A stretch of 64,000 nt of DNA, taken from Eledone cirrhosa. Lineage: Eukaryota. A model generated the notes under the pieces. That model saw nothing but the letters and a program-made list of their open reading frames with translations, was not told where the DNA came from and searched no databases. Of the stretch, positions 2,009-59,179 are shown in pieces. Numbering within the stretch: the stretch's first letter is position 1; each line of letters starts with the position of its first letter. Both the position numbers and the translations under genes were made by a program. The stretch is taken from contig OZ024740.1 in assembly GCA_964016885.1 (NCBI GenBank), forward strand, positions 74,586,001 through 74,650,000. Direction: 5' to 3'.

Positions 2009-2109
2009 AATACTGCGGGTTCCGCTTTTACCACTGCTAAATGTCACAGCTAGCATGGCAGCACATTCTTCAGCATAATAGGGCATTTGGCCATTTTCAT
2101 CAACAGCAC
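2009..2109 (-). CDS. PCSK7: PCSK7 exon (GAVDENGQMPYYAEECAAMLAVTFSSGKSGTRSI)
   Basis: AG/GTAAGT boundaries, 101 nt; YAEECA.MLAVTFS is PC7-type. Confidence 0.94.
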
Positions 2110-2485
2110 CTAAATATTGGAAAGGAAAAATTGTATTTGACAAAGATTGATGTGATGTTTTTACAAATAACAGTTTCTACTTTTTGGCACAAGGCCAGCA
2201 ATTTCGGAGGGGAAGGGAAAGTCAGTTATATCAACACCAGTGTGTTACTGGTAGTTTATTTTATTGATCCCAGAAGGATGAAAGGCAAAGTTAACCTCGG
2301 CAAGATTTGAAACCAGAATGTAGAGGGTTGTAATGAAATGCTGCAATGCATTTCATCAATTGGAGATAGTTGCTTCTGATAGAACTCACTGGAAAGCATG
2401 CTTGAGGACTCTGCTCTCATGACCCTCAAAGGAGGAGGAAGGAGAAGGAGCAGAAAAAGGAGGAGAAGAAAAAGAAGAAGCTTAC

Positions 2486-2624
2486 CTATTGTCACTGTAT
2501 AAATAGAATTTGCATATCCATCATAATTACAATTGTCAAAATTGCTGCCACCGTTACCACTGGCAACAACATAAATAGTTCCATACCCATTACGACCATT
2601 AGTTATACCATGCTTCATAGCTTG
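2486..2624 (-). CDS. PCSK7: PCSK7 exon with oxyanion-hole Asn ([46 protein letters not shown])
   Basis: AG/GT boundaries, 139 nt; ASGNGG and [14 protein letters not shown] motifs. Confidence 0.95.
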
Positions 2625-2657
2625 CTACCAAAAGAGAAAGAGGGATTGAAATAATAT

Positions 2658-2925
2658 TGTTTGCATGTATATGTGCATTTGTATGCATGTATAGGTATGT
2701 GCATGTGCAAGCATGCATGTGTATGTGTGCATGTGCACTGGCACGCATGTATAGGTATATGCATGTGCAAGCATGTATGTTTGCATGTATGTATGTGCAT
2801 GTGCACTGCCATGCATGTATAGGTATGTGCACGTTTGCATGTATGAGTATGTGTGTGCATGTATAGGTATGTACACGTGCGAGCACGTATGTGTATGTGT
2901 GCATTTTCATGCATGTGTGTATGTA
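2658..2925. repeat. Purine-pyrimidine (TGCA/TGTA) compound satellite next to a PCSK7 acceptor
   Basis: Repeated GCATGTATAGGTATGTGCATGTGCA units. Confidence 0.85.
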
Positions 2926-3459
2926 GTTACAAGTAAGTTAGAAATTATTTCAAAGAGCAAATATTAGATCCATCTGTATCATATATTTCTACATTTACTA
3001 TTTCTATTGAAATTCTATAATCTAAGATCATCATCATGGAAAAATGGATGTAAAAATGATGATGATAATAATAATCTAAACCACACTAGCATAGAAAACA
3101 GATGCAAAACTGATGTGTGTGGGGAAAGGAGTATGTGTGCATTTGTCTCCATATCTTCACATTGACACCACTTGGGCAGTGATGATGTTTGTTCATGTAC
3201 TACATAAACAATATGTTCCACAGCTCAGGAGTTTAACGTGTTAAAAGCAGTGGAAATATGCATCTTATCTAAAAACAAGTGTTGGCATCATGAAAGTTTT
3301 ATCCAACCTACATCAGTATGGAAAAAGCAAGCATAAAAACAATTAAGATGATGATTTCAGTGTCAAACATGGTGCTATATTAGTTTTAATATTAACATCA
3401 AAACTAAGAGTAATCTAATTGTTTTTAAGCTACAACAATTAAAAATATTTCTCTTTTAC

Positions 3460-3514
3460 CAAAGCCAGATTATGAGGTCCATCCACAGTTTTACCATCAT
3501 CATCAGGGCCCCAA
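3460..3514 (-). CDS. PCSK7: PCSK7 exon (SWGPDDDGKTVDGPHNLAL)
   Basis: AG/GT boundaries, 55 nt, phase 2 to 0; SWGPxDDGKTVDGP motif. Confidence 0.94.
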
Positions 3515-3890
3515 CTGAAAAACAATAGCAATAATAATCACATAAATTTGATATAAAAGAATTGGACTAGAGTCAGAAGACATCAATTTTTCAATTTAAA
3601 ATATAAAATGACATGGTAATACACAACAACAAGCATTCTAAGACCATTTTTCCTGCTAAAACAAGGGTCAACCTTGAGGGAACCATGACAAGCTTCATAC
3701 ACATCATGGGATCCTTTCTGAAACAATGTTTTATAGCCAGTTGTCCTTCCTGGTGCCAGCTTTTTCACCCACCTCTTACAATATGCAGGGATACAGTGTG
3801 CCTATTCTAAACTGAATACATACAGAGCATGGTAATATATAGTATACTAAAATGTTGTTATTGTCAAAAAAAATAAATAATAATTCTGAC

Positions 3891-3981
3891 CTGCAGCTGT
3901 ATATGTCATTAATTTGCATATTTTTGTTAAATGCTGTTGCTTCCAGACCATCTGTAAGAGGACCATCCAGGACCCGCAAAC
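3891..3981 (-). CDS. PCSK7: PCSK7 exon ([30 protein letters not shown])
   Basis: AG/GT boundaries, 91 nt, phase 1 to 2; RVLDGPLTD is characteristic of PC7. Confidence 0.94.
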
Positions 3982-4936
3982 CTGCAAATAAGAAATTCAT
4001 TTTTGTTCAACTGTCATCACCATATTTATTCAGTAATTTCTCTAAAAAGTGTAGTGAGTTATACATAGATATGGTTCTAATTATAAATACTTGAACTGAA
4101 TTAGCAGGAGTTAACTCTTAAAGTCCTGTACCACACGAAACCACATTAGCAAGACTTTCCACAAAAGTATAAAACAGCACAATGACTGCATCACATTATA
4201 AATTAAAGTGTTAATTTACTGCAAATTTTCACAACAACCTGCCCACTACTAAAGATATTATAAATATTTGAATTAACAAACACATTTTAGATATTTATTC
4301 ACAGTCATTAATGTTAGCAGTGAAGTGAGCTATGGTCCTAATTGCAAATACTTGAGCTGAGCTAACAAGAATTTAACACATTTGCTAGAGACACAGTTAA
4401 AGCAACAGTGCAGATACAATTTGTCAAATAGCAACAAACTTTGTCTAGCTGTGTGTAGGCCAGATTATGGATTAGGAGAAAACATGTGGACTCAGTTGGC
4501 ATATGACCATGATCTTTAGCAGAGGCTGCTTGCCTCATATTATAGTTTTCTTATTCTCTTCTGTTACTTGTAAATACATCTCCATCATCATTTAACATTC
4601 GTTATCTATATACATAAATCATATTGTTTTGGCACTGGTGACTATAATACTTAATGAACAATTTCAAATAAGGTCTATATAGCTAGTGATATCTATGTAC
4701 TTCCTACATAAACAAAGATCCCACAGTTCAATATTTAAACATGCAAAATTCATGGATGTGGGTCTGTAGCCCTGAGGGAGTCGTAGGAGTGCCATATTGA
4801 CTTACAGTGCTTCTAGAGCTTTTTTTTTTTAACCTGGCAAAGTCCATCTCCTTTCATTCATACTTTACTTCAAAAACAAGAATTCTGCCTCCCAATGTCT
4901 TGTTCATCCCTTGCCAGCATGAAAAAATAGATTTAA

Positions 4937-5145
4937 CCCTTTAGTGTTCAAACCGGCCAGAATTCTCTACCTCTTTCTGTTGAAACTGGCTGTAACTGGT
5001 CGCTCAAACTGATTTTAAGGTATGTTCTCAAAATAAATACTTTCAAAATCTCATAGACTCGATATTATGTGAGATAATTATGTGCAGTAAAGCCTTTACC
5101 ATGAAAATATAATAGTATATATAAAATAATGTGAATGCTAAAGGG
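4937..5145. mobile_element. piggyBac-type MITE family; related copies near 45620-45833, 48370-48530 and 60858-61063
   Basis: TTAA-CCCTTTAG ... CTAAAGGG termini; the internal sequence is shared among the four copies. Confidence 0.7.
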
Positions 5146-5285
5146 TGATGAATGATGATGACAGATGACTGATGGCAATGGATGCTGATGATGAATGATA
5201 ATGATTATGTAGAATGATGATGATGCCATCGCTGATGCCTGAGATATGAAACAGTCACACACTTAATGAGGCAAGAGAAAATGAC

Positions 5286-5381
5286 CTGAAACTTTAGCAC
5301 CATATGCTACACCAACTGCACAAACTGAATTGGGGACAGCAGCAATTTCTCCAGCACATCGTGTTCCATGGTGATTAGTGT
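5286..5381 (-). CDS. PCSK7: PCSK7 exon with catalytic His ([32 protein letters not shown])
   Basis: AG/GT boundaries, 96 nt; HGTRCAGE motif. Confidence 0.95.
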
Positions 5382-5490
5382 CTAGAAAAAAAATTCACAA
5401 CTTATGTTTATATATCAAGGTTCTATAAATACTGGGATAATAAAGTAAATTATCTAATCATTGGTATAAGGTTTAACACGTATAAGCTTG

Positions 5491-5795
5491 TGTGATATAT
5501 TGCACAACTACTCTCAGTTCTTCTACTTGCGTAGAAGACAGCAATGATGTGACATCTCCCAGGCACTGCAACCAACCCATGTCAATGGGATCAGGGTGTG
5601 TGAGGCCCACATCCTCAGGTAGGCATAGATCCAGGCACTCACTCAGCAGGCGTTCAGCTATGCTAATACAACCCTCCCCTCTCGGAAGGAGTGGGTGTCT
5701 CTGAATCAGCTATACACAGGTGTTAGCTGATTCAGTGTGATTGTGTACCACTGGAGCCTGTGTCCATCGGTGACTTGCTCTCAGTTTACATCTCA
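5491..5795. mobile_element. Possible short solo LTR in a PCSK7 intron
   Basis: TGTGAT...ATCTCA termini; GC-richer than the flanks; internal 12-bp perfect inverted repeat CTGAATCAGCTA/TAGCTGATTCAG. Confidence 0.4.
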
Positions 5796-6012
5796 TTTAG
5801 ATCAATTTTGCTTTTCAGCCTTTTGGTGTACCAGTTCAGTGTGGAGGGTTGGTGGAATTATTAGAACAATGGATGAGGTGCCTTGCAGCATTGGTTTTGG
5901 TTCATCGCATTCTGAGTTCAAATCATACTCAGTTTAACAATAACATCACCACCTCTTTAGCACGCACATACACACAAATTCTATTTGAAATAAACAACAT
6001 TATAATACTGAC

Positions 6013-6114
6013 CTGATGAGGCACTAGGCATTGGATCAGGATCATTGTCATTTAAATCCCAGCTTCCTTTAGCACAGTAATTATCCTCAAGATCAGGGTT
6101 GTTCCACTCCACTC
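6013..6114 (-). CDS. PCSK7: PCSK7 exon (GVEWNNPDLEDNYCAKGSWDLNDNDPDPMPSASS)
   Basis: AG/GT boundaries, 102 nt, phase 1 to 1; DxNDNDPDPMP kexin-family motif. Confidence 0.93.
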
Positions 6115-7017
6115 CTAAATGGATTTAACAAAAGAATTCCATTATTTTTGATTTATTATAATCTGAAATAAGTAGTTTATTTACTTATGTAATGTTTTGT
6201 TACATTAGATACAATGACTCAGATGAGAGAAGTGAGGAAACTACCTTGTGTCTCATTTATACATTTCTCTAGAGCATTAGTAATGCAAGTGAAAAAGAAT
6301 TGACTCAAAACTGATCTAACAAATAGTGATTTATTTTCACTATGCACAATAGTCTTATATTTTAGACAATGGAAATAGGCAGTTGTGATATTGGTTTATT
6401 TACTGAAATTAGTAGTATAACTAAATTTTACTCAATCAACGAACAAAACTGATACTAAAATTTAAAAAAAAATGTAATTCTTAACAGGCTTTGTCTTCAT
6501 ATAATATCATCATCATCATTCTTTATTATGTCTGTTTTCTCATGCCTGCATAGGTTAGATAAGTCCTGTGGTATGACCTGGGCTATATAAGACCAAGTAC
6601 CAGACAGTGAAATCAAACCCCAAACACATAGTTGTGGAGTAAACTTTTTAACCATAAAACTAGACATGCATAAGTTAACCTGCTAAGACCTGTTTCACTT
6701 TAGCCTATTGATTTTTGCTAGTAAGGTACAAATAGTAAAGGAAATGAACTGCCACTATGCGGAATTGAACCTGTACCATAGGTTTAGCTTGTCAGAGACA
6801 TATTGCCAACTCTATGGCATTTGAAATCATCATCATCATCATTTAATGCCAGCTTTTCACTGCTAGCAATGGTTGAACAGGTTGTCATCAGCCAAATAAG
6901 TAACTAATCTGTACTACTGACCTCTCAGATGGGCCAAGGAGCAGCATCCCACTTATATACATTCCCATATTCTAGTAAGAGGAAAAAAATAGATAAAAAT
7001 CCAAAATAATTCTTTAC

Positions 7018-7114
7018 CATCATCCACAACAGCCACAACGATGCCTTTACCAGTAACATTGTATTTCCAAACACGCATAACATCAATATCCATATCTTGA
7101 TTCCCCCTGTTGTT
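7018..7114 (-). CDS. PCSK7: PCSK7 exon with catalytic Asp (NNRGNQDMDIDVMRVWKYNVTGKGIVVAVVDDG)
   Basis: AG/GT boundaries, 97 nt, phase 0 to 1; subtilase VAVVDDG motif. Confidence 0.93.
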
Positions 7115-7169
7115 CTAGAATAAATAAACAAGTTAAAAGTTAAAGTCTTCCTTGAGCTTAGAGGCTTGT

Positions 7170-7410
7170 TAAACCAAAGCTTATCCCAGTTGTATGTGGT
7201 ATAAGTCAGGCCATAATATATCCCAGTTTTATGTGGTGTAAGTCAGACCAAAGCTTATCTCAGTTTTATGTGCCATAAGTCAGGCCATAGTATATCCCAG
7301 TTTTATGTAGTGTTTGTCAAACCATAGTATATCCCAGTTTTAGGTGGTATAAGTCTCACCATAGTATATCCTAGTTTTAAGTGGTGCTAAATCAAGCCAA
7401 AGCTTATTCA
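7170..7410. repeat. Minisatellite, ~37-bp unit, about 6 copies
   Basis: Unit approximately CCATAGTATATCCCAGTTTTATGTGGTATAAGTCAGG. Confidence 0.85.
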
Positions 7411-7419
7411 TTGTAACAT

Positions 7420-8960
7420 GCTTAATTTCTTTCCAACTCCTGCATATCCTCTGCATTTACTTCCCATGTTTCCCTTCACATGCAGGCATTACACAGCCAG
7501 TCTTTTGTTTGTAGAGAGAAATCTTTGTTGTCAACAAGGATAGTAGTGCCCTGAACTTTTTCCAACCTATTCTTATTCTAGCTACTATACTTTCATAGCA
7601 ACCCTTTTCAATGCTAATTTGGTCACCTAGGGAACAAAAGTTATCAACTACTTTTCTGGAGCTTTCCAGAGATTAGGGAAAGGTTATTACACTGAGGCTC
7701 TTACTACTGACTACCCCTGTGTATTGCTTACATACAAAGTCTACCTTTTCAGTTAATCTGCCTATAACTCCACAACATCTCTTTTGTAACCACTGTATAC
7801 AGTTTCCATCTGTTTTTTTTTTTCGCTAATGAGAACAGAGTCCTGTCTTTTTTCCTACTTCCTAAAACTTTTGCCGTTACTAGGTTTACTCTGAGTGCTT
7901 TTGATTTTGAGTTTTGTTCACAGTAAGAACATTTCTAACTCTTATACAGATTCAGCAATAAGGACCAGGTCATCAGCATATAGAAGTTCTTATGGACAGC
8001 TAATCTTAAACTCCTCCTGGAGGACTATAATAAATAGGAGCTGAGGACTGAGCCTTGATGAACACCAACCCATACATTGAATTCCTCAGTAAACTCATTA
8101 CCTACACATACTTTGTTAACTGCACTTATGTGCATGGCTTGCACTGCTCTCATAAGCCACTCTTCTACCTACCAATTTCCTTAAGGACCACCTGATAAAC
8201 AGATTGTGGAACTGTCAAAGGCTTTCTCCAGATCAACAAAAACTAGATATAGTGGCTAGAAACTTCTCTTATAGTTATCTCACTAGGAAGAGAGCATCTT
8301 TGGTGCTCCTTTTTGGCACAAAACCAAACTGCATTTCATATAATTTGACCCTTTCTCTAATTAGTTGTGCCAACACTCTTTTCAACACTTTCATCACTTG
8401 GTCCAGTTTTATGCTTCTGTAGTTGCTCCTTTCTAGAGCATCACCTTTCCCTTTGTAGCAATTATTATACTGCTGTGCCAGTCAATGAGTATGACCCCAT
8501 CCTGTATTACCTGATTGAATATGCATATGACTATCTCAACCTCTACTTCACCAGATGACTTCAGCATCTCAGGAACTATCTCTGATGGTCCAGCTGCTTC
8601 TCCATTTATCCTTTTCTTGATTACTTCTTTGACCTCGTAACTGTCCACTTTGATAGATAGCCCCTTCTATTAAGTCAACTGGGCGTACTCCCTCTTCCTT
8701 CCACACATTCTCCAGATTTATCAACTCTCATAATATTTGCAAGCCTCTTTCTTCTGAGCATCAATGAGGCTAAGCACACCAGAGTCATTTTAAACATACT
8801 TTTCCTCAACAACAGCTTGGTTCACAATGGCATACTGCTTTGCTATGCAGAAGCCTTCATACTTCTGGTCCTCCCATTGCAAACTTCCTGCTTTCAGCTT
8901 CTTTACATGCTATGTAAACCTGTTGTCTAGCTTCTCTTTTAGCTATTTGATATTGTAAAT
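7420..8960 (-). mobile_element. Degenerate RTE LINE in a PCSK7 intron
   Basis: Fragments such as AAGPSEIVPEMLKSSGE; nucleotide similarity to 57350-59116 with many stops and indels. Confidence 0.82.
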
Positions 8961-9191
8961 GTGGTTATGATTGTTTTGGAAAAACTAGTACAATACAAAT
9001 TAGAAATACAAGAGTGAAAACTAAAGTAGAGTAAAGTAAGAAAAACAAAACAAAAAATATATATTTAATTAAATATTTCATACCTTTCCTAACTAAACAG
9101 TAAAAAACAAAACAAAAAAAACATGATCTCGTCACATTTTTTGTTATAGCAGATGAATAAATAGATAAAATATTATCAAAATAACACGTAC

Positions 9192-13209: not shown

Positions 13210-14980
13210 ATCATCCAACAAGAAGTTTCTAGCTAAAAGTAAGCTTCTATATCTAGCTTTTGTTGATCTAAAGAAAGCCTTTGGCAGAGTACCCCAATCT
13301 GTCATCTGGTGGTCCTTAAGGAAACTAGGTGTAAATAAGTGGCTTGTGAGATCAGTGTGAGCCATGTACAGAAGAGCTGTCTATAATGGAAGTGAGTTTA
13401 GTCCAGAATTCAGTACTTCAGAGCTTGGTCTTCAGCTCACTTCTGTTTATTATAATCCTTCAGACCATAACAGGATTATCCAAGGGAACTTCTGTATGCT
13501 GATGAGATGGCCTTCATAGCTGAATCTGTGGAAGAACTAGAGAATAAATTCCAACAGTGCAAACAGAACTTAGAATTAAAAGGACTAAGAGTAAACTTAG
13601 CAAAAAGTAAAGTGTTAATATGTAGGAAATTAGACAAGGCCCTGATCCCATCAGGGAAGTGGCTGTGCTTGAAAAGAGGTAGGTAAAAACTATATATGAT
13701 AAAAATAAGCCACTATACTTAGCCTTTGTTGACCTAGAGAAGGCCTTTGATAGGGTACCCCGATCTGTCATCTGGTGGTCCCTAAGGAAACTAGGTGTTG
13801 AGGAATGGCTTGTGAAGACAGTGCAAACTTTGTACAGAGATACTGTCAGTAAAGTCAGGGTAAGAATGGAGTTTAGTGAGGAATTCCAGATACAAGTAGG
13901 AGTACATCAAGGTTCGGTCCTCAGCCCGCTCTTGTTCATTAGAGTCCTCCAAGCCATAACAGAGGAGTTTAAGACTGGCTGTCCATGGGAACTTCTCTAT
14001 GCTGATGATCTGGTTCTTATAGCAGAATCAGTAGAGGAGCTAGAGAATAAATTCTGGCTATGGAAACAGCAGTTGGAAGCAAGAGGACTGATAGTGAACC
14101 TAGCTAAGACAAAAGTGTTGATGAGTAGAAAAGAGGACAAAACTCTGATTCTGTCAGGGAAATGGCCATGTTCGATATGCAGAAAAGGAACTGGCATAAA
14201 TTCTATAAAATGCACACAATGCAGATCCTGGGTACACAAGAGATGTAGCAGGATAGCAGGCAAACTAACAGGTAGGGAGAAATACGTATGCAGTAGATGT
14301 ACAGGGAAATTAGACAGTAGAAGTCGCATTGATAGACACATTTTTCAAATGCAGGCGGGTGCTATAGAAGTGGTGGATAGCTTCCGGTACCTAGGAGATC
14401 AGATTAGCATGAGAGGAGGGTGTTCCGAGGCCAAAGTGTCTAGAATAAGGACGGGTTGGAAGAAGTTTAGCGAGCTGCTTCCTCTGCTGACGAAGAAGGG
14501 TTTCTCCCTGCGTACGAAAGGCCGGTTATATGATGCCTGTGTGATGTGTGAGGAGCACGATGCTGCATGGTAGTGAGACATGGGCAGCAACTGCAGAGGA
14601 TATGCGACAGCTGGAGAGAAATGAGGCAAGCATGCTCCGTTGGATGTGCAATGTCAATGTGCATGAACGGCCCAGCATGAATGTGTTGAGAGAGTAACTG
14701 TGTCTGAGAGGGATAGAATGTAGTGTGCGAGAGAGGAGACTGAGGTGGTGTGGACATGTGATGCGCATGGAGGATGACCGATGGGTGAAGAAATGCCAGG
14801 AAATGCCAGTTGAAGGGAGATGTGGTAGAGAGGTGGTGAGATCAGACCTCAGATTGCTGAAGCTCACGGTGGAGATGACAAAGGACCGTGACAAGTGGAG
14901 AGATGCTGTGCTGAATAAGACCCGTCCCACCCTTGCAAGCAGGGAAAAGCGGACGTATGATGATGATGATGATGATGATA
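13210..14980 (+). mobile_element. RTE LINE fragments (old piece 13210-13690; younger 5'-truncated copy 13705-14980 with (GAT)n tail)
   Basis: ORF 13812-14573 with YADD and Cys finger; C-terminal RRLRWCGHVMRM...DRDKWR; (TGA)n tail at 14957-14979. Confidence 0.9.
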
Positions 14981-15699: not shown

Positions 15700-18545
15700 G
15701 ATATATGTATATTCACCTACATTTATATAATATACATCTATTGAGATGAAAGAATGGTATTTAACTAATGTATTGGTACGCGATGGGGCCCACCCACAAC
15801 CCCGGCGGACAGAATGGAGAAGGCGCTTCCCCGGAGGACGGCAAGGGAGACGCGCTGGAAAAGCCACCCCAACTCGTGGGGCTCACACCTATGGCTGGCC
15901 AGCTCAGCGCCTATGGTGGTCAGTAAGGAGGGAGCCCTGGGGCCGAGGACACCAGAAGTCTCCACTGCCAGGGGTACGACCGCAAACCTATCGGTGAGCG
16001 ACCGGTATTTGAGGAGTTTGGACCCCTCAGCCCGACGTGCAGCAGAACCTGGGTCCAGTCGCAGACTACACCAGGTTGCGGCTAAAGAAAGTGTTGGTGC
16101 AAGTCGCATCCCAGACGAGGGGTTTTCCACTGCGGAACGGGAAGATGGTCATGCCATCTAGCCTTTTGCCGTCCCCTCGATCCAGCCCCACCGGAAGGGA
16201 AGGGAAGCCTGCAGCGTCCAAGCCATGTTTAATGACCTCATTGAGGGCAGTATGGCGTGGAATGCGGCCGGCACTGTGGCGACAGGAAAGCGGGTGGAGG
16301 CCGAAAGAGTCCACGGTGGAACCGCAGCGACATTGGTGTGGCTGGCAGATCCGGAGGCCGAGCCTCAGAGAAACGCCGATTCGCAGGCTATGGTTGTCTA
16401 GCTGCATGCCAGTGGAGAAGGAGGGCAGAGCATGGAGCCAGGCACCACTGTGGGGTTTGGAGGCTGCACGAAAACAAGCAAGGTGGTGCTGGTCGAGCTG
16501 GCGCGTGAGCCTGTGTGAGGCCAGGCTGCACTGGATGGCATCCCAAGTGCGTTGAGGGACTTGACGTCAACAGGAGGAGAAGGAGGAGGGACGTCTACTG
16601 GGCTAATTCCCAGCCGGTACCACGTCTCACAGGCGGCCTCACGTTCTCTGAACACAGAGGGTTCTATTGTGTTTTGAAGAACCCTGCTGACGAGGATGCT
16701 GCATGAGGTTACCAATGAAAGATACGCCGGCAAAGCTAGTGAGATCGGGGACCGGAGGCCTAGGCCGCCATACTTGACCGGTAAAGTGGCCTGTTGCCAC
16801 CCTATGTCGTCAAACTTGACGTTGCATATCCCCTCGGCTGCTGCTCGGATACAAGTATCGAGGTCAGCAAGGAGAGATGTCTGGGTGTAGCATGGAGCGC
16901 TGCGGAGTGTATAGAGGAGCTTCGGCATGGCAAAGCAGTTCCTCAGCAGAAAGAGAGCTGGGTGGCCGTCAATCAAGCCCAGTCGGCTCGTGAGAGTCTG
17001 GAGCTGTTGAAGCCTGGACCTGGTGGTGGGGCGGATGGCTGGCGGGTGGATCGGTGACCCGAGGATGAGGACATCCTCTTTGGGGGTCACCTGAACTTGG
17101 CGGAGAATGGACCGCACGTCCAAGACGGAGGCTGCAAAGCTCACAGCATCGAGGCTGACGTTCACCACCTCCGACTTGGCCAAGTTGACCTGGAGGCCGA
17201 TTCCCTCCAAGGCAGGAATCACCAATTGAAGGTCTTGGCAGACCGTCCGTACGGGCCCGCCCAACATAGCATCATCCAGATACCAAACATTGAGAGGGGC
17301 CGTGATACTCCGGGCGATGTGGTCAATACCAAGGGCGAACAGGACAGGTCCCAAAGGGTCGCCCTGTTGGACCCCAGTAGCCGAGAGTATGACCGTATCA
17401 GCAGCTAGGAGCATGCTCGGGGCTCCATATGATAGGTAGGCCAGCCGGTAGGCCAGCCGGTAGGCAGAGGGGGCTCGGCCGAGGCAGGCCTCGAGCAGAT
17501 GATCCCGGCATAAAGAGTTAAAGGCATTCCTCATGTCAAGCTTGACAATGAGGTGCCTGGAGTCACTGGATGCCGGTACCGATGGACAGCTGCTGAAGAA
17601 CTGCCTGATTGCATGAGAGGCTCCCTCACAGCCACCAGACACGCCGACACCCAGTTGCACTGGACTAAACTCCTCACCCAGTTCGTGTGTGACGGACTTG
17701 CGGGGGTATGGGTCTGAGATCAGTGGGTGGCTCAGGGTGTTTGAGCCGCAGAGCAGCCAGGATCTCCTCGGTGGGTTGGAGGACAGTGTCCTCTGAGGCA
17801 ACAACTCTGACTGCGGCCAAGACATCACCCATGATAAGCTTTGCGTTTACCTGGTCACGCAAACGCTTGGCGCTGGCCTCGGGGGTAGAGGATAGGGGGT
17901 ACCTGAGGGTGGGGTGTGTGGCGTGCCTGGGCACACTTGGTATGGGCGCTCGCCCAAATGACGAGACATTGGCCTTGACGAAGGCTGCTGCTGACCGGCC
18001 ACCCCAGTCAGCGCCAGAGCTGGGGAGGCCGAGGGCGAGTGGGGCGAAATAGAACAGCCGCTCCCAGTCACTGGCTCGATTGGAGTCCAGGGCGCTCTCA
18101 ATCAAGGAAGCGAGGGCATCGGCTACCGGCACCCGTGCCGCTCTCGGGATCCTGAGTGGGATCTTCCAGAGCCGCCTGAGCCGAGCGATGTTGACCAGCA
18201 AGGCTCGGGCGTCAGGCAAGCTCGCTGTCCCATCTGGTGGTGTGCCAGACGGCCGTGAAGACGTGGGGGAAGAGGCAGCTCCTGCACCTCCACGCTGCGA
18301 GGGCATTGGAAGCTCGACGGGTCAAGCCAACGCAGGTGAGGTGGTGGAAGGAGCCGCACCCCAAACAGTTCAGGCCCCTCTTCCATTTGTTAGTGGTGCC
18401 GCAAGTGCTGCAGGTGTCGATTTGGAGGGGTGGGGGATGGGCGTGGGGCCGGAGACTGGGGCACCGAGCGGCATCAGGGGTGGGTGGCTGGGGCGTGTGG
18501 TCGGAAGGGAAAGTGCTGGTAACAGGGCAGCATAGCTCACCTATA
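15700..18545 (-). mobile_element. CRE-clade-like non-LTR retrotransposon (PHD finger, RT, CCHC knuckle, restriction-like endonuclease); frameshifted and internally deleted
   Basis: Stitched minus-strand frames give CxxC...CxxCxxxxHxxC...WxCxxC; QLGVG..GGCE, KLDMRNAFN, GVQQGDPLGP, WYLDD, LPVKYGGLGL; CRC..H...C; RH, KRLDG, WDAT, E..K..KY, PLAVETSG. Visibly far more GC-rich than the flanks. Boundaries are approximate. Confidence 0.88.
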
Positions 18546-19579
18546 TATATGGAGGTGCCAGAAAACGAGAGCGAAAAGGCGCTGCATGGAAGTGGAGACA
18601 CAGGAAGGTAGAATGGCAGTAAATGAATGAGTGAATGGATGTACACAAAAAAAGGGGGGAGGGGGAACAAGGGGTTGTTCCCAGTAGAAAGACCCAGAAT
18701 TCAGCACGCACACATGCGAGCAACTGAGCAGTTTGTCAAAGACGATATTCTCAATGGACGCGCTTACAATATTTGAATATAACTGAACCGTCGTGTCATT
18801 TAATTTGAAAAGTGAAGCAAAGTAAAAGGAAAATAGTGAATTTGTGATTTTTTTTTTCTTTTTTTTTTCCCCCAATACCGGACTTACAGTTTTCCAGGAT
18901 TTATACTCAATTTTTTTTTTCCTTCAAAAGGATGGAGGCGTTTTTTCTCCTCATGAACTTAATGATGTTCATCATCTATGGCTTATTCATATGTATTATT
19001 TCATAACTCTATAGAACTATTAGAATGTTTGTGCAGTGTTCTGTGTTCAGCCAGGTTTGTACAACAGGTAAGAAAAATGATGATTTGGTGACGGTTTCTT
19101 CTGATAGGAGCCTCTTCCACGTCGGAAGATCGAAGTGTGTTTTCTTGTCTTCTTCAATACTTTCATAAACAGCTTCGGAGATTTAAAACTTATGTTTCAA
19201 TTGGTGCTTCCATTTCCACACGGTTCTATTGTCTTATTTACAAAAATATATATTTCTATATATTTCTTTATTTATTTCTCTTCTTTTGGTATAATATAGC
19301 GAGTTGTCACCAGTGATGTTTGAAGTTCCTTGGAGTTGGTCAGAGTATCGCTTAAAGCTTTCTTTGTAGCACCTATCCTTTAATTTATCTTTTTCAAAAC
19401 AATTTGATGTATCATATCTACATGTATATATACTTGCGTATAACATCAATATACACACTACACATGCTAGCAGAAAACCACCTGAAGGGTGGTTTTTCTG
19501 GTAGTGTATGTAATTGATGTTCAGGAAAATTGATAGTAAAGATTTTCCCCTACAAACAAAAGATCAGTCGTATGATACT

Positions 19580-27974: not shown

Positions 27975-28530
27975 TGACAGAAGCAGCTTTTGCTACCAAG
28001 GTGATCAAATTAGTAGAGGGGGAGAATACACTAAAAGTGTGTTAGCTAGGGTAAGAACTGGCTGGAAGAAATTTAGAGACCTATTACCATTGCTAACAAC
28101 AAAATTCGTTTCTCTCAGAGTGAAGAGTATACTGTATGATGCCTGTGAGTCAACTGCAATGTTACATGGCAGTGAAACATGGGCTTTGACTGCAGAAAAC
28201 ATGCTGAGGCTAGAACAAAACGAGTCAAGTATGCTCCGATGGATGTGCAATATTAGTGTGTATGAGTGACATAGCATAAGCAAACGGAGGGAAAAACTTG
28301 GCATTAGAGGAGTGTGCAAGAGAGAAGATTTCATTGGTATGGCCATATGATGTGTATGGAAGATGACAGCTGCATAAAGAAATACAGAGAAATCCCAGTA
28401 GCTGGGACCCATGGAAGAGGCTGACCCAGGAAGACATGACATGTGGTTGTAATGACTGACCGTACAAAGTTAAAGACCTTGAGGGATGGCACTGTGTGGG
28501 CGCTGAAGAAGACCCAACCTGCAGGTTAAA
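27975..28530 (+). mobile_element. Degenerate RTE 3' fragment following a (GA)n microsatellite
   Basis: ARVRTGWKKFRDLLPLL...LYDAC..MLHGSETW...LRWMCN. Confidence 0.8.
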
Positions 28531-29069: not shown

Positions 29070-29100
<31 letters not shown>

Positions 29101-29218
29101 TACTTCGTGGGGGTCATGCTGCCAATAAAAACACACACACCTGTTGGTTTTAACTTCAATTTATTATAAATTTCCAGTTGTAGGACAAAACAAAGGAGTG
29201 ACACAAAATAAAAATCTA

Positions 29219-29261
29219 GTCACTGAGGAAGTCACATAGTATGTGACGAAAGAGCTTTGAC
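29219..29261 (+). ncRNA. Minimal type I hammerhead (Penelope pLTR-like)
   Basis: GUCA-CUGAGGA-A-GUCACAU(AGU)AUGUGAC-GAAA-GAG-CUU-UGAC: 4-bp stem I, 7-bp stem II and a very short stem III. Confidence 0.7.
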
Positions 29262-29570
29262 AATATATAAACAACCATCTGTTTCAACACACGTTTTCAG
29301 ATAAGTAAACTTGCAGAACAACAAATTAAAAAACGAAGGCAAACAGAAACAACAAAGCAAACGACACAGTACAATGAAGAAATATATTATTAGCTTTACG
29401 CTTGATATAGTAGGAAAAGAGTCTTAATGCTTCGGACACTAATCCTTTCCCGGAAAAGAGAATGAGAAATTAAAGTAATAGAAAGATTGAGGTGACGGGC
29501 AGTAACAGAAATGGAAAAAATGTTTTTTTAGAGAAAAATAACTGGTCCATTAATGTCATCTCTTTCTCTT

Positions 29571-29574
29571 TATA

Positions 29575-29642
<68 letters not shown>

Positions 29643-29665
29643 TATAAATATATATATATATATAT
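29571..29665. repeat. (TA)n microsatellite; further tracts at 29070-29096, 31783-31795 and 32181-32207
   Basis: Directly visible. Confidence 0.95.
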
Positions 29666-29954
29666 TTAAGTAAGAATATTTTCGAAACAGCGAGTGGGTT
29701 TGAAATTATTAGAAATGTAAGCTATCGCCGTATTTTAACTAAAGATGAGTATTTACGTAAATACACATCTTTTTCCATTTCTCCGAGGGTTCTTAACCCC
29801 ACTATCAGGCTAAATAATTTCTTTAATTTCTTTAGTCAAAATACGGCGATAGCTTACATTTCTAAAATATATATATTTATTTGTGTGGTACGGAACCAGA
29901 TGGACCATAACGCACCAGAGTACTCAATACTTAGGGTAGTAGAATGGGAAATAG

Positions 29955-30068
29955 GAAAAAGTATGACCCCGACAGCAGATCTCAAGCCGTTTCGACGGCT
30001 ATTTCTGGACTAAATTAGAATTTTTAGCCTGGTGAATAAATAGCCGAACTTGTCAAGGGGGTACTTCC
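29955..30068 (-). ncRNA. Second copy of the U3-A8 type I hammerhead, opposite strand
   Basis: Reverse complement of 32067-32180. The substitutions in stems II and III keep pairing (U-A vs U-G, G-U vs G-C). Confidence 0.8.
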
Positions 30069-31176
30069 TTATATGGGAAGATTGTAGTTGTCAAGAGGAT
30101 TGGTTAAATTTTGTTGTAAACACAAATAAATCTATCATGGCATTTGGTGGGAGGTAAGGGTGGCTGAACTTGCCTATAGAACAATAGGGGGGTGAGTGGA
30201 GTCGGTCAAGCGTTGAAAGTGATATGTATACAGCAGATTCTAAGGATAGTGTATGAAATGGAGGAGGGAGGTTATAGAATAGGTAATTCGAACGAGAGTA
30301 GGAGACAATAAAAGATAATAGAAAGAAAAAAAAAAAATTATATATAAATTAATATATAAATATATAAATTAATAGTACTCGTTTGGTATAACGATGGCCT
30401 AACGACGATGGCTGACTTCCCACTAGCACACCCGAAGCCTAGAACAGTTACATTCCTTGAGTGTTCTGAAAAATTGATTTCCATATCTTTCGCTATACAA
30501 TTTCACTCGGAATGGCTGACACGTGGTTAGGATGGGCTGGCCGGAGTCTGCAGTCGTCGCGTGCTGTTTGACTGCTAAACAAGGACTTAATCTTTACTCT
30601 ATAGCCCACCCTGAAAACTTATCGAGGATCTCTATAATACACTTAAAATGTTTTCATAAAAGATCCTCTCTGTAAATTCTTTAACTAAATCTCGCAACAC
30701 AAACCATAAATTTTTTTAAACAGTTTAATTTTAATTTTCTAATTTTTTTTAATTTTATAATTATAATTTTAATTTAATTTAATTTTTTTTATTTCATCCT
30801 ATAAATCTAAACAAAAATTTAACGTCCAATTTTCTGTTCACACATTATACCATGCAGACGCCCACTATATATACCCCTGTTATAATATATACCTCTGTTA
30901 AGATATAGGTTCTTTAGAATAACTTTTTCGCAGCAATTCCTAGTCTGATTGTAGCATGACATTAACGCTGACTTCTCTTCTTTCTTTCTGTCTTTTTTTT
31001 CTCTTTGACCAGGAGGATAGTAGCACATTATAAGCTTTCGCCCCGTCACCAGATAGCCTTAAGTAGACCGAATAGCCAGCACTTGAGGGCGACCGGCTAA
31101 AGTGGAAGATGCTAGATGGTCGGTTGTCCTCGGGTCTATGATTTTCAGCCCCAAGGATTTTATCTGTTACATTCAT

Positions 31177-31253
31177 TTATTATATTTCGAATACCTGATG
31201 ATATCACCGGATTCATACGGAACCTGGTCATTGAAATGATCATAGTATAATAA
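31177..31253 (+). ncRNA. Minimal type I hammerhead with palindromic stem III
   Basis: AUAC-CUGAUGA 31195-31201; stem II ACCGG/CUGGU with mismatches at the base; GAAA 31233-31236; palindrome AUGAUCAU; AUA triplet; GUAU closes stem I. Confidence 0.65.
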
Positions 31254-31312
31254 ACCTTTCAAGGATTTACACAAGTCCAGCCTCCTGTTATTTTATTATA
31301 ATATTATATATA

Positions 31313-31782
31313 TGTACAGCCACCGGAAATAACACCTGTGAAATATACAGCGCCATCTACCTGTTAGCTAGCTACCTCAACGTGAAACAAAAGAACCCTT
31401 AGAACCTACCAGAATAAACGCCTACACACCGGCTAAACATCAAACGATTATTTCTGTATAAATAGAGTGGTTCCAAACACTTCAGCAGTCGACTTTTGGC
31501 AGAGTCAGCTAGCGTATCGTTGTTCCTCGCCTCTGCCACACTTTGTCACTCACACGCCTTGTACCTCGTATCGTCGCTTCATGTGAAAATAAATAGCTGA
31601 TCGAATTTACATCTCGCCTTTCAACTTGTGCTTTCGTCTGTCCATCCTCAACAGTTCTTTTAAGGGCTATATGCGACAACAGTCCTTTTAAGGACTATCT
31701 TCAGATCTGATCAGACCGTATGCGATAAGTATCTCGGATCTGATCAGAAGTAGTGACCAGACTGACTAACCACGTCGCTACA
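31313..31782 (+). mobile_element. Solo LTR inserted in (TA)n
   Basis: TGTA...TACA termini flanked by TATATA on both sides; TATAAATA near 31457; AATAAA near 31588; CpGs retained. Confidence 0.72.
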
Positions 31783-32066
31783 TATATATATATATTTTTT
31801 TTTTTTCAATTATCTTTTATTGTCTCCTACTCTCGTTCGAATTACCTATTCTATAACCTCCCTCCTCCATTTCATACACTATCCTTAGAATCTGCTGTAT
31901 ACATATCACTTTCAACGCTTGACCGACCCCCCCCCCCCCCCCCACCCCATTTGTTCTACAGGCAAGTTCAGCCACCCCTACCTCCCACCAAATGCCATGA
32001 TAGATTTATTTGTGTTTACAACAAATGTTAACCAATCCTCCTGACAACTACAATCTTCCCATATAA

Positions 32067-32176
32067 GGAAGTACCCCCTTGACAAGTTCGGCTATTTATT
32101 CACCAGGCTACAAATTCTAATTTAGTCCAGAAATGGCCGTCGAAACGGCTTGAGCTCTGCCGTCGGGGTCATACTT

Positions 32177-32180
<4 letters not shown>
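32067..32180 (+). ncRNA. Type I hammerhead ribozyme, U3-A8 core variant, GUC cleavage triplet
   Basis: Core UUGACAA 32079-32085 and GAAA 32142-32145. Stem II CGGCUAUUU/AAAUGGCCG closed by G-C. Stem III ACGGC/GCCGU; GUC 32162-32164. Stem I CCCC/GGGG, internal loop, GGAAGUA/UACUUUU. Confidence 0.8.
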
Positions 32181-32211
<31 letters not shown>

Positions 32212-50067: not shown

Positions 50068-50775
50068 TTAATCTGCTAATCTTAAAATACTTTTTTTCTC
50101 CAAAGCTTCCATTTCTTTTAAAACATAAGAAACATTGTATCGGAGTTCTTGAAATTTAGTCAATGGTACCTCAAACGTGGAAACTTTACCATTACTAAGA
50201 ATTAGTTCGACAAAAACATACGGTTCTAACACTCGGTTAAGCACGCTAGTAGATATTGTGGTGTCCACACGCCACCTGAATGATTTTAATTTTGGTAAAG
50301 AGGGTCTGCTAGCCAACAAGGCCGTGTCGATATCCGATCTTTTAGCTCCATACACAACAGTTTCTAAATCACTTACAAAGTCAGAAGGAATGCCAAGTTC
50401 AGCTAAATCCTCTTTAAATACATCAACTTTTAAAGCTCCGCTTGGTTTCCTGAAGGCACATAACAACAGAGTGTAAAGTCCTGTGTGGATAATCCGTAAT
50501 CCTTCTTCGTCGATTTTGTTAGAAATTAATTGTTTAAAATCCAACTGGATACGTTCTTTTGATTTTTCTTCCAGAAACAAACATTCAGATTTTAATTCAT
50601 CTGAGATAGCGAAACCTGAAATAACGGAATGTAGGATTTTCCGAAAAATCTTTTTATCGATATCCGATATAATTTTAGTCATAGAACGGATCTCGGGTGG
50701 TATAATAGGACCGACGAACAAGGTTTTGTCGATATTTCCACCCAGCCCTGTCCCTACAACTTTTATAATAGACAT
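50068..50775 (-). CDS. COMMD5: COMM domain-containing protein 5, single coding exon, 235 aa
   Basis: Uninterrupted ORF. The C-terminal COMM domain LPKLKSFRWRVDTTISTSVLNRVLEP...FEVPLTKFQELRYNVSYVLKEM closely resembles vertebrate COMMD5. Confidence 0.93.
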   Translation of the reverse strand: MSIIKVVGTGLGGNIDKTLFVGPIIPPEIRSMTKIISDIDKKIFRKILHSVISGFAISDELKSECLFLEEKSKERIQLDFKQLISNKIDEEGLRIIHTGLYTLLLCAFRKPSGALKVDVFKEDLAELGIPSDFVSDLETVVYGAKRSDIDTALLASRPSLPKLKSFRWRVDTTISTSVLNRVLEPYVFVELILSNGKVSTFEVPLTKFQELRYNVSYVLKEMEALEKKSILRLAD

Positions 50776-50819
50776 ATTTCAAAGAGACGATCGTAATTAG
50801 AAAGATATAAGCATGTCGT

Positions 50820-56634: not shown

Positions 56635-57349
56635 GTGTGAGAAGCGTGATGCTGCATGGTAGTGAGACATGGGTAGCAACTGTGGAGGATATGCGACAGC
56701 TGGAGAGAAATTAAGTAAGCATGCAATGTTGGATGTGCAATGTCAATGTGTGTGAACAACCAAGCATAGACGAGTTGAGAAAGAAACTGTGTATAAGAGG
56801 GATAGGCTGTAGTGTGCGGGAAAGAAGACGGCGTTGGTATGGACATGTGATGCGCATTGAGGATGACTGCTGGGAAAAGATGTGCCAAGAAATCCCAGTA
56901 GAAGGAAGACCATGAAAAACATGGGCAGAGGCAGTAAGAGCAGACCTCAGATCGCTGAAGCTTACGGAGGAGATGACAAAGGACCGTGACGAATGGAGAG
57001 ATGCCGGGCTTAATAGGACCCATCCCACTCTTGCAAGCAGGGAAAAGTGGATGTAAAATGATGACGATATATATATATATAGGGAGAGAGAGAGATGTAG
57101 TGGGATCCAAGTTAAGTTACCTAAGAATGTAGGTTTTACATGTGGCCATTGCACAGGAGCAGTAAACAGCAAACGACCACAAGAAACAAGCGCTATGAAA
57201 TTCTTGAAAGGTTCTATAGAAGCAGTAAGCAGTTTGTTACCTGGGGGACCTAATTAGCAGTGGAGGTGGGTGTTCTGAAAGTATAGTAGCCAGAGTGAGA
57301 ATGGGATGGAAGAAGTTCAGGGAGCTATGGCCACTGCTACCTACAAAAG
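56635..57349 (+). mobile_element. Two adjacent RTE fragments on the plus strand (3' end 56635-57066; internal piece 57090-57349)
   Basis: WMCNVNVCEQPSIDELRKKLCIRGI..RWYGHVMR; the second piece encodes ARVRMGWKKFRELWPLL. Confidence 0.82.
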
Positions 57350-59116
57350 CTTTGTTCCTCTCTAGTCTGCATATATCCTCTGCACACAATGGCCAGGTCT
57401 CACTGCCATGCAGCATTGCTGTTCGTATGCAGGCATCGTATAACCTGCCTTTCATCTTTAGGGAGAACCCTCTAGCGGCTAATAGTGGTATAAGCTCTCT
57501 GACCTTTTTCCATCCAGTTCTGACTCTAGCTACTGTACTTTCAGAGCACCCTCCCCCACTGCTGATTTTGTCACCCAGGTAACGGAAGCTGTCCACTATT
57601 TCTATAGAACCCTCTGCGAAATTGAAAGAGCTAGTATTTTGTGGGCACTTGCTGCTACTTATTGCACCAGAGCACCGGCCACATGTAAAATCTATGTTCT
57701 TAGTTAGCTTACCTGTGATCCCACTACATCTTTTATGCACCCATACTTTGCATTTGGGACATAAAATGGAGTTTCTACCTACGCCTTTCCTACACACTGA
57801 GCATGGCCATTTCCCGGAAGGGACTGCCGCCTTATTTTCTTTCCTACAAACTAGAACTTTAGTCTTAGCCAGGTTAATTTTAAGGCCTTTTGATTCTAGG
57901 CCGTGCTTTCATTGTTTGGAATTTTTTCTCTAGTTCAGCCATTGATTCAGCTATGAGCGTTAGATCATCTGCGTATAGGAGTTCCCATGGGCAGCCGGTC
58001 TTGAACTCATCTGTTATAGCCTGAAGGGCAATAATAAATAGTAGGGGGCTAAGAACAGAGCCCTGATGGACACCAACTTTTATGCTAAACTCTTCACTAT
58101 ATTCGTTAATTCTAACCTTGCTGACTGTTTCTTTATACATGGCTTGTATAGCTCTCACAAGCCATTCGTCAACACCTAGTTTTCTAAGAGCCCACCAGAT
58201 AATGGAACGGGGGACTCTGTCGAAGGCTTTCTCCAAGTCAACAAAAGCTAAGTATAGGGGTTTACTTTTAGCTAGGTACTTCTCCTGTAGTTGTCGTACA
58301 ATGAAAAGAGCGTCTGTGGTACTTTTGCCTGACACAAACCCGAACTGCATTTCATCTAGATCAATTCTCTCTCTGATTAGTTGCGCTATTACTTTTTCCG
58401 TGACCTTCATGACCTGGTCGATTAATTTAATGCCTCTATAGTTACACCTATCTAGGGCATCTCCTTTACCCTTGTAACAGTTAATGATGATGCTGCTATG
58501 CCAGTCCTTCGGAACAACCCCTTTCTGTATGACTTGGTTTACTATCCGGGTGGCCATGGTGTGTCCCACCGTTCCAGAGGCTTTCAGCATCTCAGCAACT
58601 ATTTCCGAAGGCCCAGCCGCCTTACCCGTCTTCATATCTTTGATTGCCTTACTTATTATACTACCTTCAACTAACACTGCTGGTCCCTCTATTGGGTCGA
58701 TGTGGGGGAGACTGTCTTTCTCCCATTTGTTCTCCTCATTTAGAAGCCTTTCGTAGTGACACTTCCAAGCTACCTTCTTATCAGCGTCAGTGATGGCAAG
58801 TATGCCATCATCATTAAGTACACACTTCTCCCCGACAATATCACGGTTTTCCTTGACACATTGCCTAGCAATCCTGAACACCTCACGTTTTTGGTCCTCA
58901 CGTTGTAGAACATGCTTGAACTTTCTTTCCTCTGCTTCCCTTCTTGCGAAGTACACTTGTCTCCTAGCTTCCCTCCTGGCCACTTGATAGTCTTCTCTAC
59001 TTCCCCCATCCCGCCATACTTTCCAAGCCTGCTTTTTGGCCTTAATTGACTCCTCCACCTTACTGTTCCACCACCATGTTACTCTCCTCCTACCTACAGG
59101 CCTGCTCCAGCCACAG
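57350..59116 (-). mobile_element. RTE-clade LINE, truncated at both ends, with a long open RT region and a PHD-like finger after YADD
   Basis: TWWWN, KAAGPS, YKGKGD..NYRGIKL, FVDLEKAFDRV, GVHQGSVLSPLLF, LLYADD, then CSVC..CPKCKVWVHKRC..CGRC and FRYLGD. Frameshift near 57910. Confidence 0.93.
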
Positions 59117-59119
59117 ACT

Positions 59120-59179
59120 AGAATAAACAAGGAGACACAATAACACATTCAGACTATTCAACAAAATGTTTTATTTATT
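59120..59179 (-). terminator. Probable NDUFS2 polyadenylation signal with GU-rich downstream element
   Basis: Two overlapping AATAAA on the minus strand (59170-59179), ~135 nt after the stop, followed by TGTGTTATTGTGTCTCCTTGTTT. Confidence 0.6.

Follow-up and report, generated by a model that had tools for sequence, protein, structure and literature searches.

A probable stack of truncated Penelope-like elements, and a tRNA-headed repeat inserted among them, in a hammerhead-bearing (TA)n island of Eledone cirrhosa

Hammerheads and repeat modules of the island

We analyzed a 64000-nt stretch of the Eledone cirrhosa genome (GenBank assembly GCA_964016885.1, contig OZ024740.1, positions 74586001 to 74650000 of the forward strand), hereafter called the window, and in particular an island at 29070-32207 in which predicted type I hammerhead ribozymes lie among (TA)n tracts. 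The island is made up of repeat modules that we relate to Penelope-like elements (PLEs), retroelements whose protein joins a reverse transcriptase (RT) to a GIY-YIG endonuclease. The modules, named A1, A2, B, D', EF, G and D from left to right, were each searched for in the 3.0 Gb genome, and copy numbers are given below as first-look candidates, which are lower bounds. For each DNA search the best 40 candidates were scored and 15-30 loci were taken. The features of the island, with the 3' untranslated region (UTR), the open reading frame (ORF) and the long terminal repeat (LTR) abbreviated, are as follows.

29070-29096: (TA)n tract at the left edge (TRF, 13.5 copies)
29097-29335, plus strand: module A1, putative 3' UTR of a coding Neptune/Nematis-type PLE (at least 3272-3523 first-look candidates; longer copies coding)
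29219-29261, plus strand: minimal type I hammerhead with a C3-G8 core and a 2-bp stem III (descriptor)
29336-29570, minus strand: module A2, putative 3' UTR of a second Neptune/Nematis-type PLE (genome copies; link to the ORF through relatives)
29422-29457, minus strand: degenerate copy of the A2 minimal hammerhead, with core and GAAA mutated (alignment with relatives)
29571-29665: (TA)n tract (TRF, 47.5 copies)
29666-29866, plus strand: module B, inverted arm with tail and 5'-truncated sense piece of a 272-bp tRNA-headed unit (genome copies)
29884-30338, minus strand: module D', putative 3' UTR of a Hydra-clade PLE, including a 67-nt tail at 29884-29950 (genome copies, ORF linkage)
29967-30060, minus strand: type I hammerhead with a U3-A8 core, a long stem II and a 5-bp stem III (descriptor, fold)
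30375-31305, plus strand: module EF, the final 930 bp of a PLE-style unit that is non-coding, 2.07 kb long and permuted head to tail (genome copies)
31191-31248, plus strand: type I hammerhead with a C3-G8 core and a palindromic stem III (descriptor)
31313-31782, plus strand: module G, solo LTR (TG...CA) of a Gypsy-type retrotransposon in a TA tract, without a ribozyme (at least 662 first-look candidates)
31790-32184, plus strand: module D, putative 3' UTR of the same Hydra-clade PLE as D', with a short 3' end (at least 2820 first-look candidates)
32075-32168, plus strand: type I hammerhead with a U3-A8 core (descriptor, aligned copies)
32181-32207: (TA)n tract at the right edge (TRF)

A first-pass annotation of this DNA had reported four clear hammerheads of three designs, on both strands, and our own type I descriptor recovered exactly this set within 29070-32207. 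None of 300 dinucleotide shuffles of the region reached four hammerheads (mean 0.04, maximum 1), and at a stricter stem II setting the four were the only matches across the window. The motif at 29219 had been placed exactly, whereas the other three lie 8-14 nt from the positions first given; one of two further motifs called degenerate was confirmed (29422-29457), while the second was not found. All four hammerheads escape Rfam, which gave no hammerhead in the region at the gathering score or at E<=5, and which found no ribozyme of any class, hammerhead and twister included, when the EF unit and the B arrays were scanned along with the region; miRNA-type matches in the same three sets were artefacts of hairpins or of (TA)n. 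The five motifs did not fold with better energies than shuffles (z -0.3 to -1.9), and folding energy was not used as evidence; the predicted folds do recover stems I-III for the D and D' motifs. Covariation of stems within families is not demonstrable, the copies being young, and support for the folds comes instead from the many hammerhead families with different paired stems.

The region contains no stop-to-stop ORF longer than 121 aa, in keeping with the earlier description of it as lacking a recognizable frame. Its supposed retention of CpG is partly a matter of reference, since the observed/expected ratio of 0.91 exceeds the 0.44 of the window, but evenly spaced genome samples give 0.66 and single modules range from 0.58 to 1.66. 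Nor is every module bounded by TA, as had been proposed, because 29097-29335 abuts 29336-29570 directly, and the 470-bp module at 31313-31782 is an LTR with no ribozyme. Every module proved to be multi-copy, with at least 662 to at least 7604 first-look candidates per module search (at least 3818 for the block 30375-31780 and at least 7604 for 29097-29570). These searches also upheld the wider picture of several unrelated high-copy families with PLE-type hammerheads that target (TA)n and stack.

Coding partners of the hammerhead modules

The motifs at 29967 and 32075 belong to one family, here called D, and their modules form an inverted pair of 390 bp that is 94-95% identical; an internal TA site of the family is the break point of both D' and D. 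The hammerhead core is intact in 35 of 36 distinct copies, and GAAA and GUC are kept in 32/36. Among 30 loci the 3' 400 bp is common to all, and sharing by other copies falls off upstream into an ORF. This single ORF carries an RT followed by a C-terminal GIY-YIG nuclease in a 784-aa frame (717 aa from the first Met), with YRDD and VIY...YIG motifs. In the copy at locus L111 the RWK motif reads RWR, DKT stands for DKG and GxKF/Y has no match. The linker is CNCPDRSIC (CxCX5C), accompanied by CNLC (CxxC) and CKH (CxH), and the nuclease lacks CCHH, with no cysteine pair between GIY and YIG. In sequence clusters that resemble the protein, RVT_1 is found in 16-48% and GIY-YIG in 64% of members. Compared by eye with the supplement text, the protein resembles the published Hydra-1_Obim protein motif by motif, and we assign family D on these motifs to the Hydra clade of PLEs. 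Tailed ends of the family are followed by TA in 35 of 37 cases, compared with a background of 11%.

A young sister subfamily is 85% identical to D in DNA, and all of its 115 scored matches show 98-100% protein identity, many copies retaining intact 784-aa open frames. One of its tandem arrays has a 3531-bp unit with a U3-A8 hammerhead, presumably of the monomer type, before each ORF, present at each of 5 positions, and ends in (TA)n. The tail and hammerhead of D' are 86.5% identical to this subfamily, and where D and its sister differ, the changes affect position 7, loops and stems but spare the catalytic core. Unit length is about 3.0 kb for D and 3531 bp for the sister, neither being under 3 kb. 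At G000:C1:437198500-437217000 and in other places, a very young Hydra subfamily also forms tandem arrays whose 784-aa frames look identical, and the Hydra RT half gave at least 31254 first-look candidates genome-wide. In addition, the flanks of unrelated loci (six loci) hold nuclease domains from no fewer than five further Hydra-like families, with 30-45% identity to that of D's sister. Further U3-A8 hammerhead families with quite different stems occur at another six loci, and the U3-A8 variant is therefore widespread in this genome.

Module A1 is built of an inverted short 3' end (29097-29180, minus strand), a 5'-truncated sense piece with the hammerhead (29181-29279) and a tail that follows an internal jump. 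Its hammerhead, which would be of the dimer type, has an intact core in 25/30 aligned copies. About a third of the 30 loci extend upstream, and the longest copies read into an RT thumb, a CX4CxxC linker (CADRKCIVC) and a GIY-YIG domain with complete CCHH (Pfam GIY-YIG E=0.0011, below the curated cut-off). For A2, whose relatives retain an intact minimal-hammerhead core, the link to an ORF runs through loci L065 and L110 (74% identity over 724 nt; A2 against L110 66.5%, E=5e-17). That ORF has a GIY-YIG domain with the CX4CxxC linker CSRPRCSTC, and in the only translated copy the first CCHH cysteine is changed and the frame is broken. The 3' ends of A2 meet TA in 12 of 18 copies, again against 11% in the background. 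A CX2-5CxxC linker before a C-terminal GIY-YIG places both families in the Neptune/Nematis type; the assignment is a joint one made from motifs, in which Neptune and Nematis are not told apart.

An autonomous Penelope with the same termini had been suggested as a check, and coding partners were found for D, A1 and A2. Three of the four hammerhead families continue upstream into RT/GIY-YIG coding sequence, which does not agree with their description as non-autonomous retrozymes; D, A1 and A2 are instead truncated PLEs of autonomous type, and the idea of a non-autonomous hammerhead element holds for the 2.07-kb EF unit only.

The non-coding modules EF and B

Full copies of EF measure 2.07 kb, and in 12 of 20 loci the element's own 3' end or tail lies directly 5' of the unit start. 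The hammerhead has an exact core in 23/28 aligned copies. No conserved ORF was found, the longest sense frame being 87-134 aa in 19 of the 20 loci and the remaining locus having a 197-aa frame in a segment that extends past its truncated copy. Translated alignments with a subfamily at 82% identity are riddled with stops, and EF has no similarity to the Hydra protein. The 5' junction of the island copy with D' shows 6 nt of microhomology. EF is a non-autonomous PLE-style hammerhead element, larger than the animal retrozymes described so far.

Module B, which carries no hammerhead, was not expected here. The family gave at least 1331-1855 first-look candidates, and its copies are either scattered or arrayed in tandem, as in an array with 10.2 copies of 272 bp. 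The island copy keeps only the last few bases of a tRNA-like head that reaches 42.4 bits with the Rfam tRNA model, above the gathering score, and that ARAGORN calls at a lowered threshold in 29/30 loci. The commonest A-box word is present in 24 and the commonest B-box word in 19 of 30 units. With a GGA anticodon and no long variable arm, the head would be a pseudo-tRNA. Neither a C3-G8 nor a U3-A8 core occurs in 28/30 full units, and no Rfam ribozyme was matched. Two core words, each in a single copy, look like point mutations and not like hammerheads, and an antisense A3-U8-like word was rejected because no matching stem I could be seen by eye. No RNA-database entry was listed for B.

The ends of B were scored at 30 loci chosen solely for containing head and body. 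The 3' ends fall into two clusters about 37 nt apart, at +176-185 (14 copies) and +209-220 (16 copies), and 28/30 copies run into (TA)n compared with 11% of the background. An inverted arm abuts the 5' end in 17 copies, and partial tandem copies were seen in the family. As for the 5' ends, 11/30 lie within 4 nt of the head, while a control query 77 nt further upstream gave 0/30 (Fisher p=3e-4). This piling of 5' ends suggests a transcript start at the head, as by RNA polymerase III (Pol III). Target-site duplications are unreadable inside (TA)n. It is likely that B is a Pol III-driven PLE hitchhiker with the full insertion anatomy of these elements, and it would be the novel part of the island. 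We lean, by a modest degree, towards the more specific proposal that B is a Pol III-made, tRNA-headed and ribozyme-free 272-nt short interspersed element (SINE) of PLEs, inserted in trans into (TA)n, so that the hammerhead would be dispensable for PLE-type insertion in a natural genome.

Diverged relatives of B exist at about 70-80% identity. A diverged sister family, seen at six loci, has a GAAA word near its short 3' end and no conserved 5' core; the word is possibly the trace of a lost hammerhead. A hairpin that seemed common to B and the hammerhead arm of D was dropped (score 50; shuffle mean 44, maximum 78).

Origin of the island and relation to known elements

In all likelihood the island is a stack of independent, 5'-truncated PLE insertions together with non-coding hitchhikers. 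D/D', A1 and A2 are 3' ends from families with copies that code for PLE proteins at other places in the genome; no protein is encoded by EF or B. In the D, A1, EF and B families the 5' end varies, inverted arms occur and the 3' end takes one of a set of fixed forms, short or tailed. Such tails and inversions are characteristic of PLEs in the available text of Craig et al. 2021 (PMC8557442), and two internal start sites of reverse transcription account for this anatomy (PMC11167929). We suggest that GIY-YIG endonucleases of successive elements likely cut the same (TA)n tract and so placed the insertions in turn. By analogy with the lizard PLE of the latter study, the protein would nick both strands of AT-rich DNA, and two internal RNA sites at which reverse transcription starts would account for the short and tailed 3' ends and the inverted copies. 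Early termination would leave only 3' ends, where the hammerheads sit, and each insertion would leave TA tracts open to a further one. EF probably landed at D' with loss of the intervening DNA. The hammerheads may persist because copying begins at the 3' end, from which they are no more than about 20-200 nt away, and would then be cargo of the elements and not a homing device. A microsatellite-homing ribozyme family had been proposed for the island, but the endonuclease explains the targeting better than the ribozyme does, since the hammerhead-free 272-bp family also ends in (TA)n in 28/30 copies. B itself would most likely be a Pol III transcript from the tRNA-like head, its insertion being carried out in trans by a PLE protein that targets TA (Hydra, Neptune-type or Naiad). 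Hammerhead mutants of the lizard PLE still insert in vitro (PMC11167929) and Naiads lack canonical hammerheads in the part of PMC8557442 available to us, which is consistent with the spread of B without one.

The earlier reading of all modules as non-autonomous retrozymes, spread as hammerhead-processed circular RNAs and homing to (TA)n, draws on genuine features: EF is non-coding and circularly permuted, carries a hammerhead and has its own 3' end or tail upstream of its start at 12/20 loci, B forms a 10.2-copy array, and a link between retrozymes and PLEs is in print, as far as the accessible text goes. Continuation into PLE ORFs nevertheless refutes it for D and A1 and largely for A2; B has no hammerhead, G is an LTR and EF is at least five times the 150-400-nt size of animal retrozymes, so we consider it very improbable. 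Still harder to credit is a single composite DNA element (a miniature inverted-repeat transposable element or foldback element) with D' and D as its terminal inverted repeats and EF and G inside. The inverted pair does bracket an interior, and its arms do break at the same internal TA site, but that interior is absent from all 28 other D loci, D copies run on into the ORF and have inverted partial copies as partners, at distances that vary, and EF has different neighbours elsewhere, which largely refutes this structure. A question confined to B is whether it is an ordinary tRNA SINE dependent on a long interspersed element (LINE), or a DNA-level tRNA-pseudogene satellite, that happens to sit in TA tracts. 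As in SINEs, the head holds A and B boxes and 5' ends gather there; tandem arrays exist, no PLE partner with a common 3' end was found, and SINEs are abundant in octopus genomes according to the available part of PMC13282606. The two 3' ends, inverted duplicated ends (17/30) and partial tandems are PLE anatomy and depart from LINE-type insertion, although no LINE partner was searched for. Twin priming by LINEs inverts the 5' part without duplicating the 3' end, and this counts against a LINE-type origin. We therefore regard a LINE-dependent or satellite origin of B as unlikely, though clearly less so than the two readings of the island just described.

Returning to the proposed stack of PLE insertions and hitchhikers, several observations weigh against it. 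The clade names come from motifs and not from an RT tree; Pfam gave no RT match and no direct match for the D-family protein, and a PDB search found no relative. The tie of A2 to its ORF, through relatives at 66-74% identity, is less direct than that of A1. D and D' differ by 15 substitutions, a distance within the range that separates them from other copies (11-22). The upstream DNA of 52 truncated EF copies contained no autonomous partner, and none sharing a significant 3' end was found for B (local score 50; shuffles 44+-7). Moreover, the other 19 B copies start 8-213 nt upstream of the head and would need multimeric templates or template jumps, and a T5 run about 9 nt past the head in 28/30 units would require readthrough by Pol III. 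Finally, our sampling of the best-scoring candidates favours young complete copies.

We also asked how the island compares with the rest of the genome. Forty 10-kb stretches taken at even spacing from eight large contigs (399.8 kb) held 27 hammerheads, compared with 0-3 in ten shuffles, and 26 of these had (TA)5 within 300 nt downstream against a background of 22%. One sampled stretch held four hammerheads within 3.1 kb, and the island is not exceptional in this genome. Extrapolation suggests a load of about 2x10^5 hammerheads per genome, in what would be dozens of designs, a figure with a wide range as the matches are clumped. Across 731 kb of family loci we counted 112 C3-G8 sites (0-1 in shuffles) and 37 U3-A8 sites (1-3 in shuffles); mismatched 3/8 pairs stood at only 7 and 6 sites. 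Mutated copies swell the corresponding counts of 50 and 13 designs, and the choice of loci favoured D, A1 and EF. As for stacking, another of the six families lay within 1.5 kb at 44/181 family loci compared with 15/120 control tiles, an excess of about twofold (p=0.012).

Module G belongs to a family with LTR pairs that are 99% identical and 5 kb apart and flank RT, RNase H and integrase in order, with 4-bp target duplications at several copies. We consider it a passenger in the tract because only 4/16 of its 3' ends meet TA, and it would have entered the TA flank of EF later. Elsewhere in the window, a 236-aa frame at 50071-50778 (minus strand) has a COMM domain (Pfam E=2e-15) and is either a COMMD-family host gene or a retrocopy, and a 5S rRNA-like match at 60478-60597 (plus strand), above the Rfam gathering score with many mismatches, is a pseudogene or a 5S-derived repeat. 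A 482-aa RT frame (Pfam E=3e-8) at 16401-17846 (minus strand), in the GC-rich interval 16000-19000, is presumably of a CRE-type non-LTR element. LINE-type fragments lie at 13683-14570 (plus strand), 57240-59148 (minus strand) and about 27990-28480 (plus strand), the first two with RT matches and the first with a PHD-like finger; one LINE-type fragment stands immediately left of the island.

Much of this biology is already known, and comparisons below refer to the accessible parts of the published sources. TA-targeting hammerhead PLEs are known in octopus and the U3-A8 core in schistosome PLEs, so the island itself is an example of published biology; the family had been thought possibly undescribed in cephalopods, but Hydra-1_Obim of Octopus bimaculoides, a Hydra PLE with a (TA)n preference and a canonical hammerhead, is already listed (Craig et al. 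2021, PMC8557442). The hammerhead modules would thus be new members of known PLE clades. Family D shares with the Hydra-clade elements their diagnostic motifs, the 3' hammerhead, the tail and the use of (TA)n as insertion site, and it also shows their partial tandems and inverted 5' copies. It differs in a unit of 3.0-3.5 kb in place of under 3 kb (a tendency that is not diagnostic), in a tail of 67 nt in place of 30-40, and in a hammerhead whose core is U3-A8 (C3-G8 in all tabulated Hydra rows), whose stem II arm is about 55 nt long and whose stem III has 5 bp; on these grounds we treat D as a different family from Hydra-1_Obim. Its U3-A8 covariation is shared with the minimal hammerheads of the Schistosoma Cercyon PLE (Cervera and de la Pena 2014, PMC4209133), and the dispersed single motifs of truncated PLEs and opposite-strand pairs 100-700 bp apart are likewise features of minimal PLE hammerheads in that report.

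The hammerhead load suggested here, near 2x10^5, is far above the published animal counts with which we compared it, namely 2000-9000 minimal hammerheads per genome (PMC4209133), about 5000 in mussel and 235 Rfam matches in giant squid (PMC6962438); descriptors differ, the numbers are not strictly comparable, and Rfam missed the four hammerheads of the window.

Animal retrozymes consist of 150-400-bp tandem units, each with a type I hammerhead (PMC7761336, PMC7229834), and the non-LTR retrozymes are likewise non-coding units thought to be moved by PLEs (PMC7229834; bioRxiv 10.64898/2026.07.22.740005). EF is like them in its hammerhead and unlike them in its 2.07-kb size and dispersed distribution; B is like them in size and tandem arrays but lacks their defining hammerhead. 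Schistosoma SM-alpha/Sj-alpha (PMC6765202) resemble B as short non-autonomous retroelements, often tandem, with a Pol III-type promoter, but SM-alpha carries a hammerhead, whereas B has none and shows PLE-type junctions. Short non-autonomous Penelope elements are mentioned in butterflies (PMC6685494), and the available text of the 2026 repeat annotation of Octopus vulgaris (PMC13282606) has entries for Penelope and for many SINE families that are left without classification, and the word ribozyme is absent from it. Our literature search, which did not cover subscription journals, Repbase or Dfam, found no tRNA-headed, hammerhead-free, PLE-dependent element, and B is probably a new variant among PLE-associated repeats.

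If so, its spread without a hammerhead would bear on the open question of what the hammerhead does in PLEs. The young Hydra subfamily, with more than 100 near-identical copies and many intact frames, makes both microsatellite targeting and mobilization in trans testable in vitro. The tRNA-bearing TRIMs (miniature retrotransposons with terminal repeats) such as Helenus (PMC10886601) depend on LTR elements, while B has PLE-type junctions. SINEs parasitize LINEs and tRNA-bearing TRIMs parasitize LTR elements, and a tRNA-headed parasite of PLEs, if true, would complete the set.

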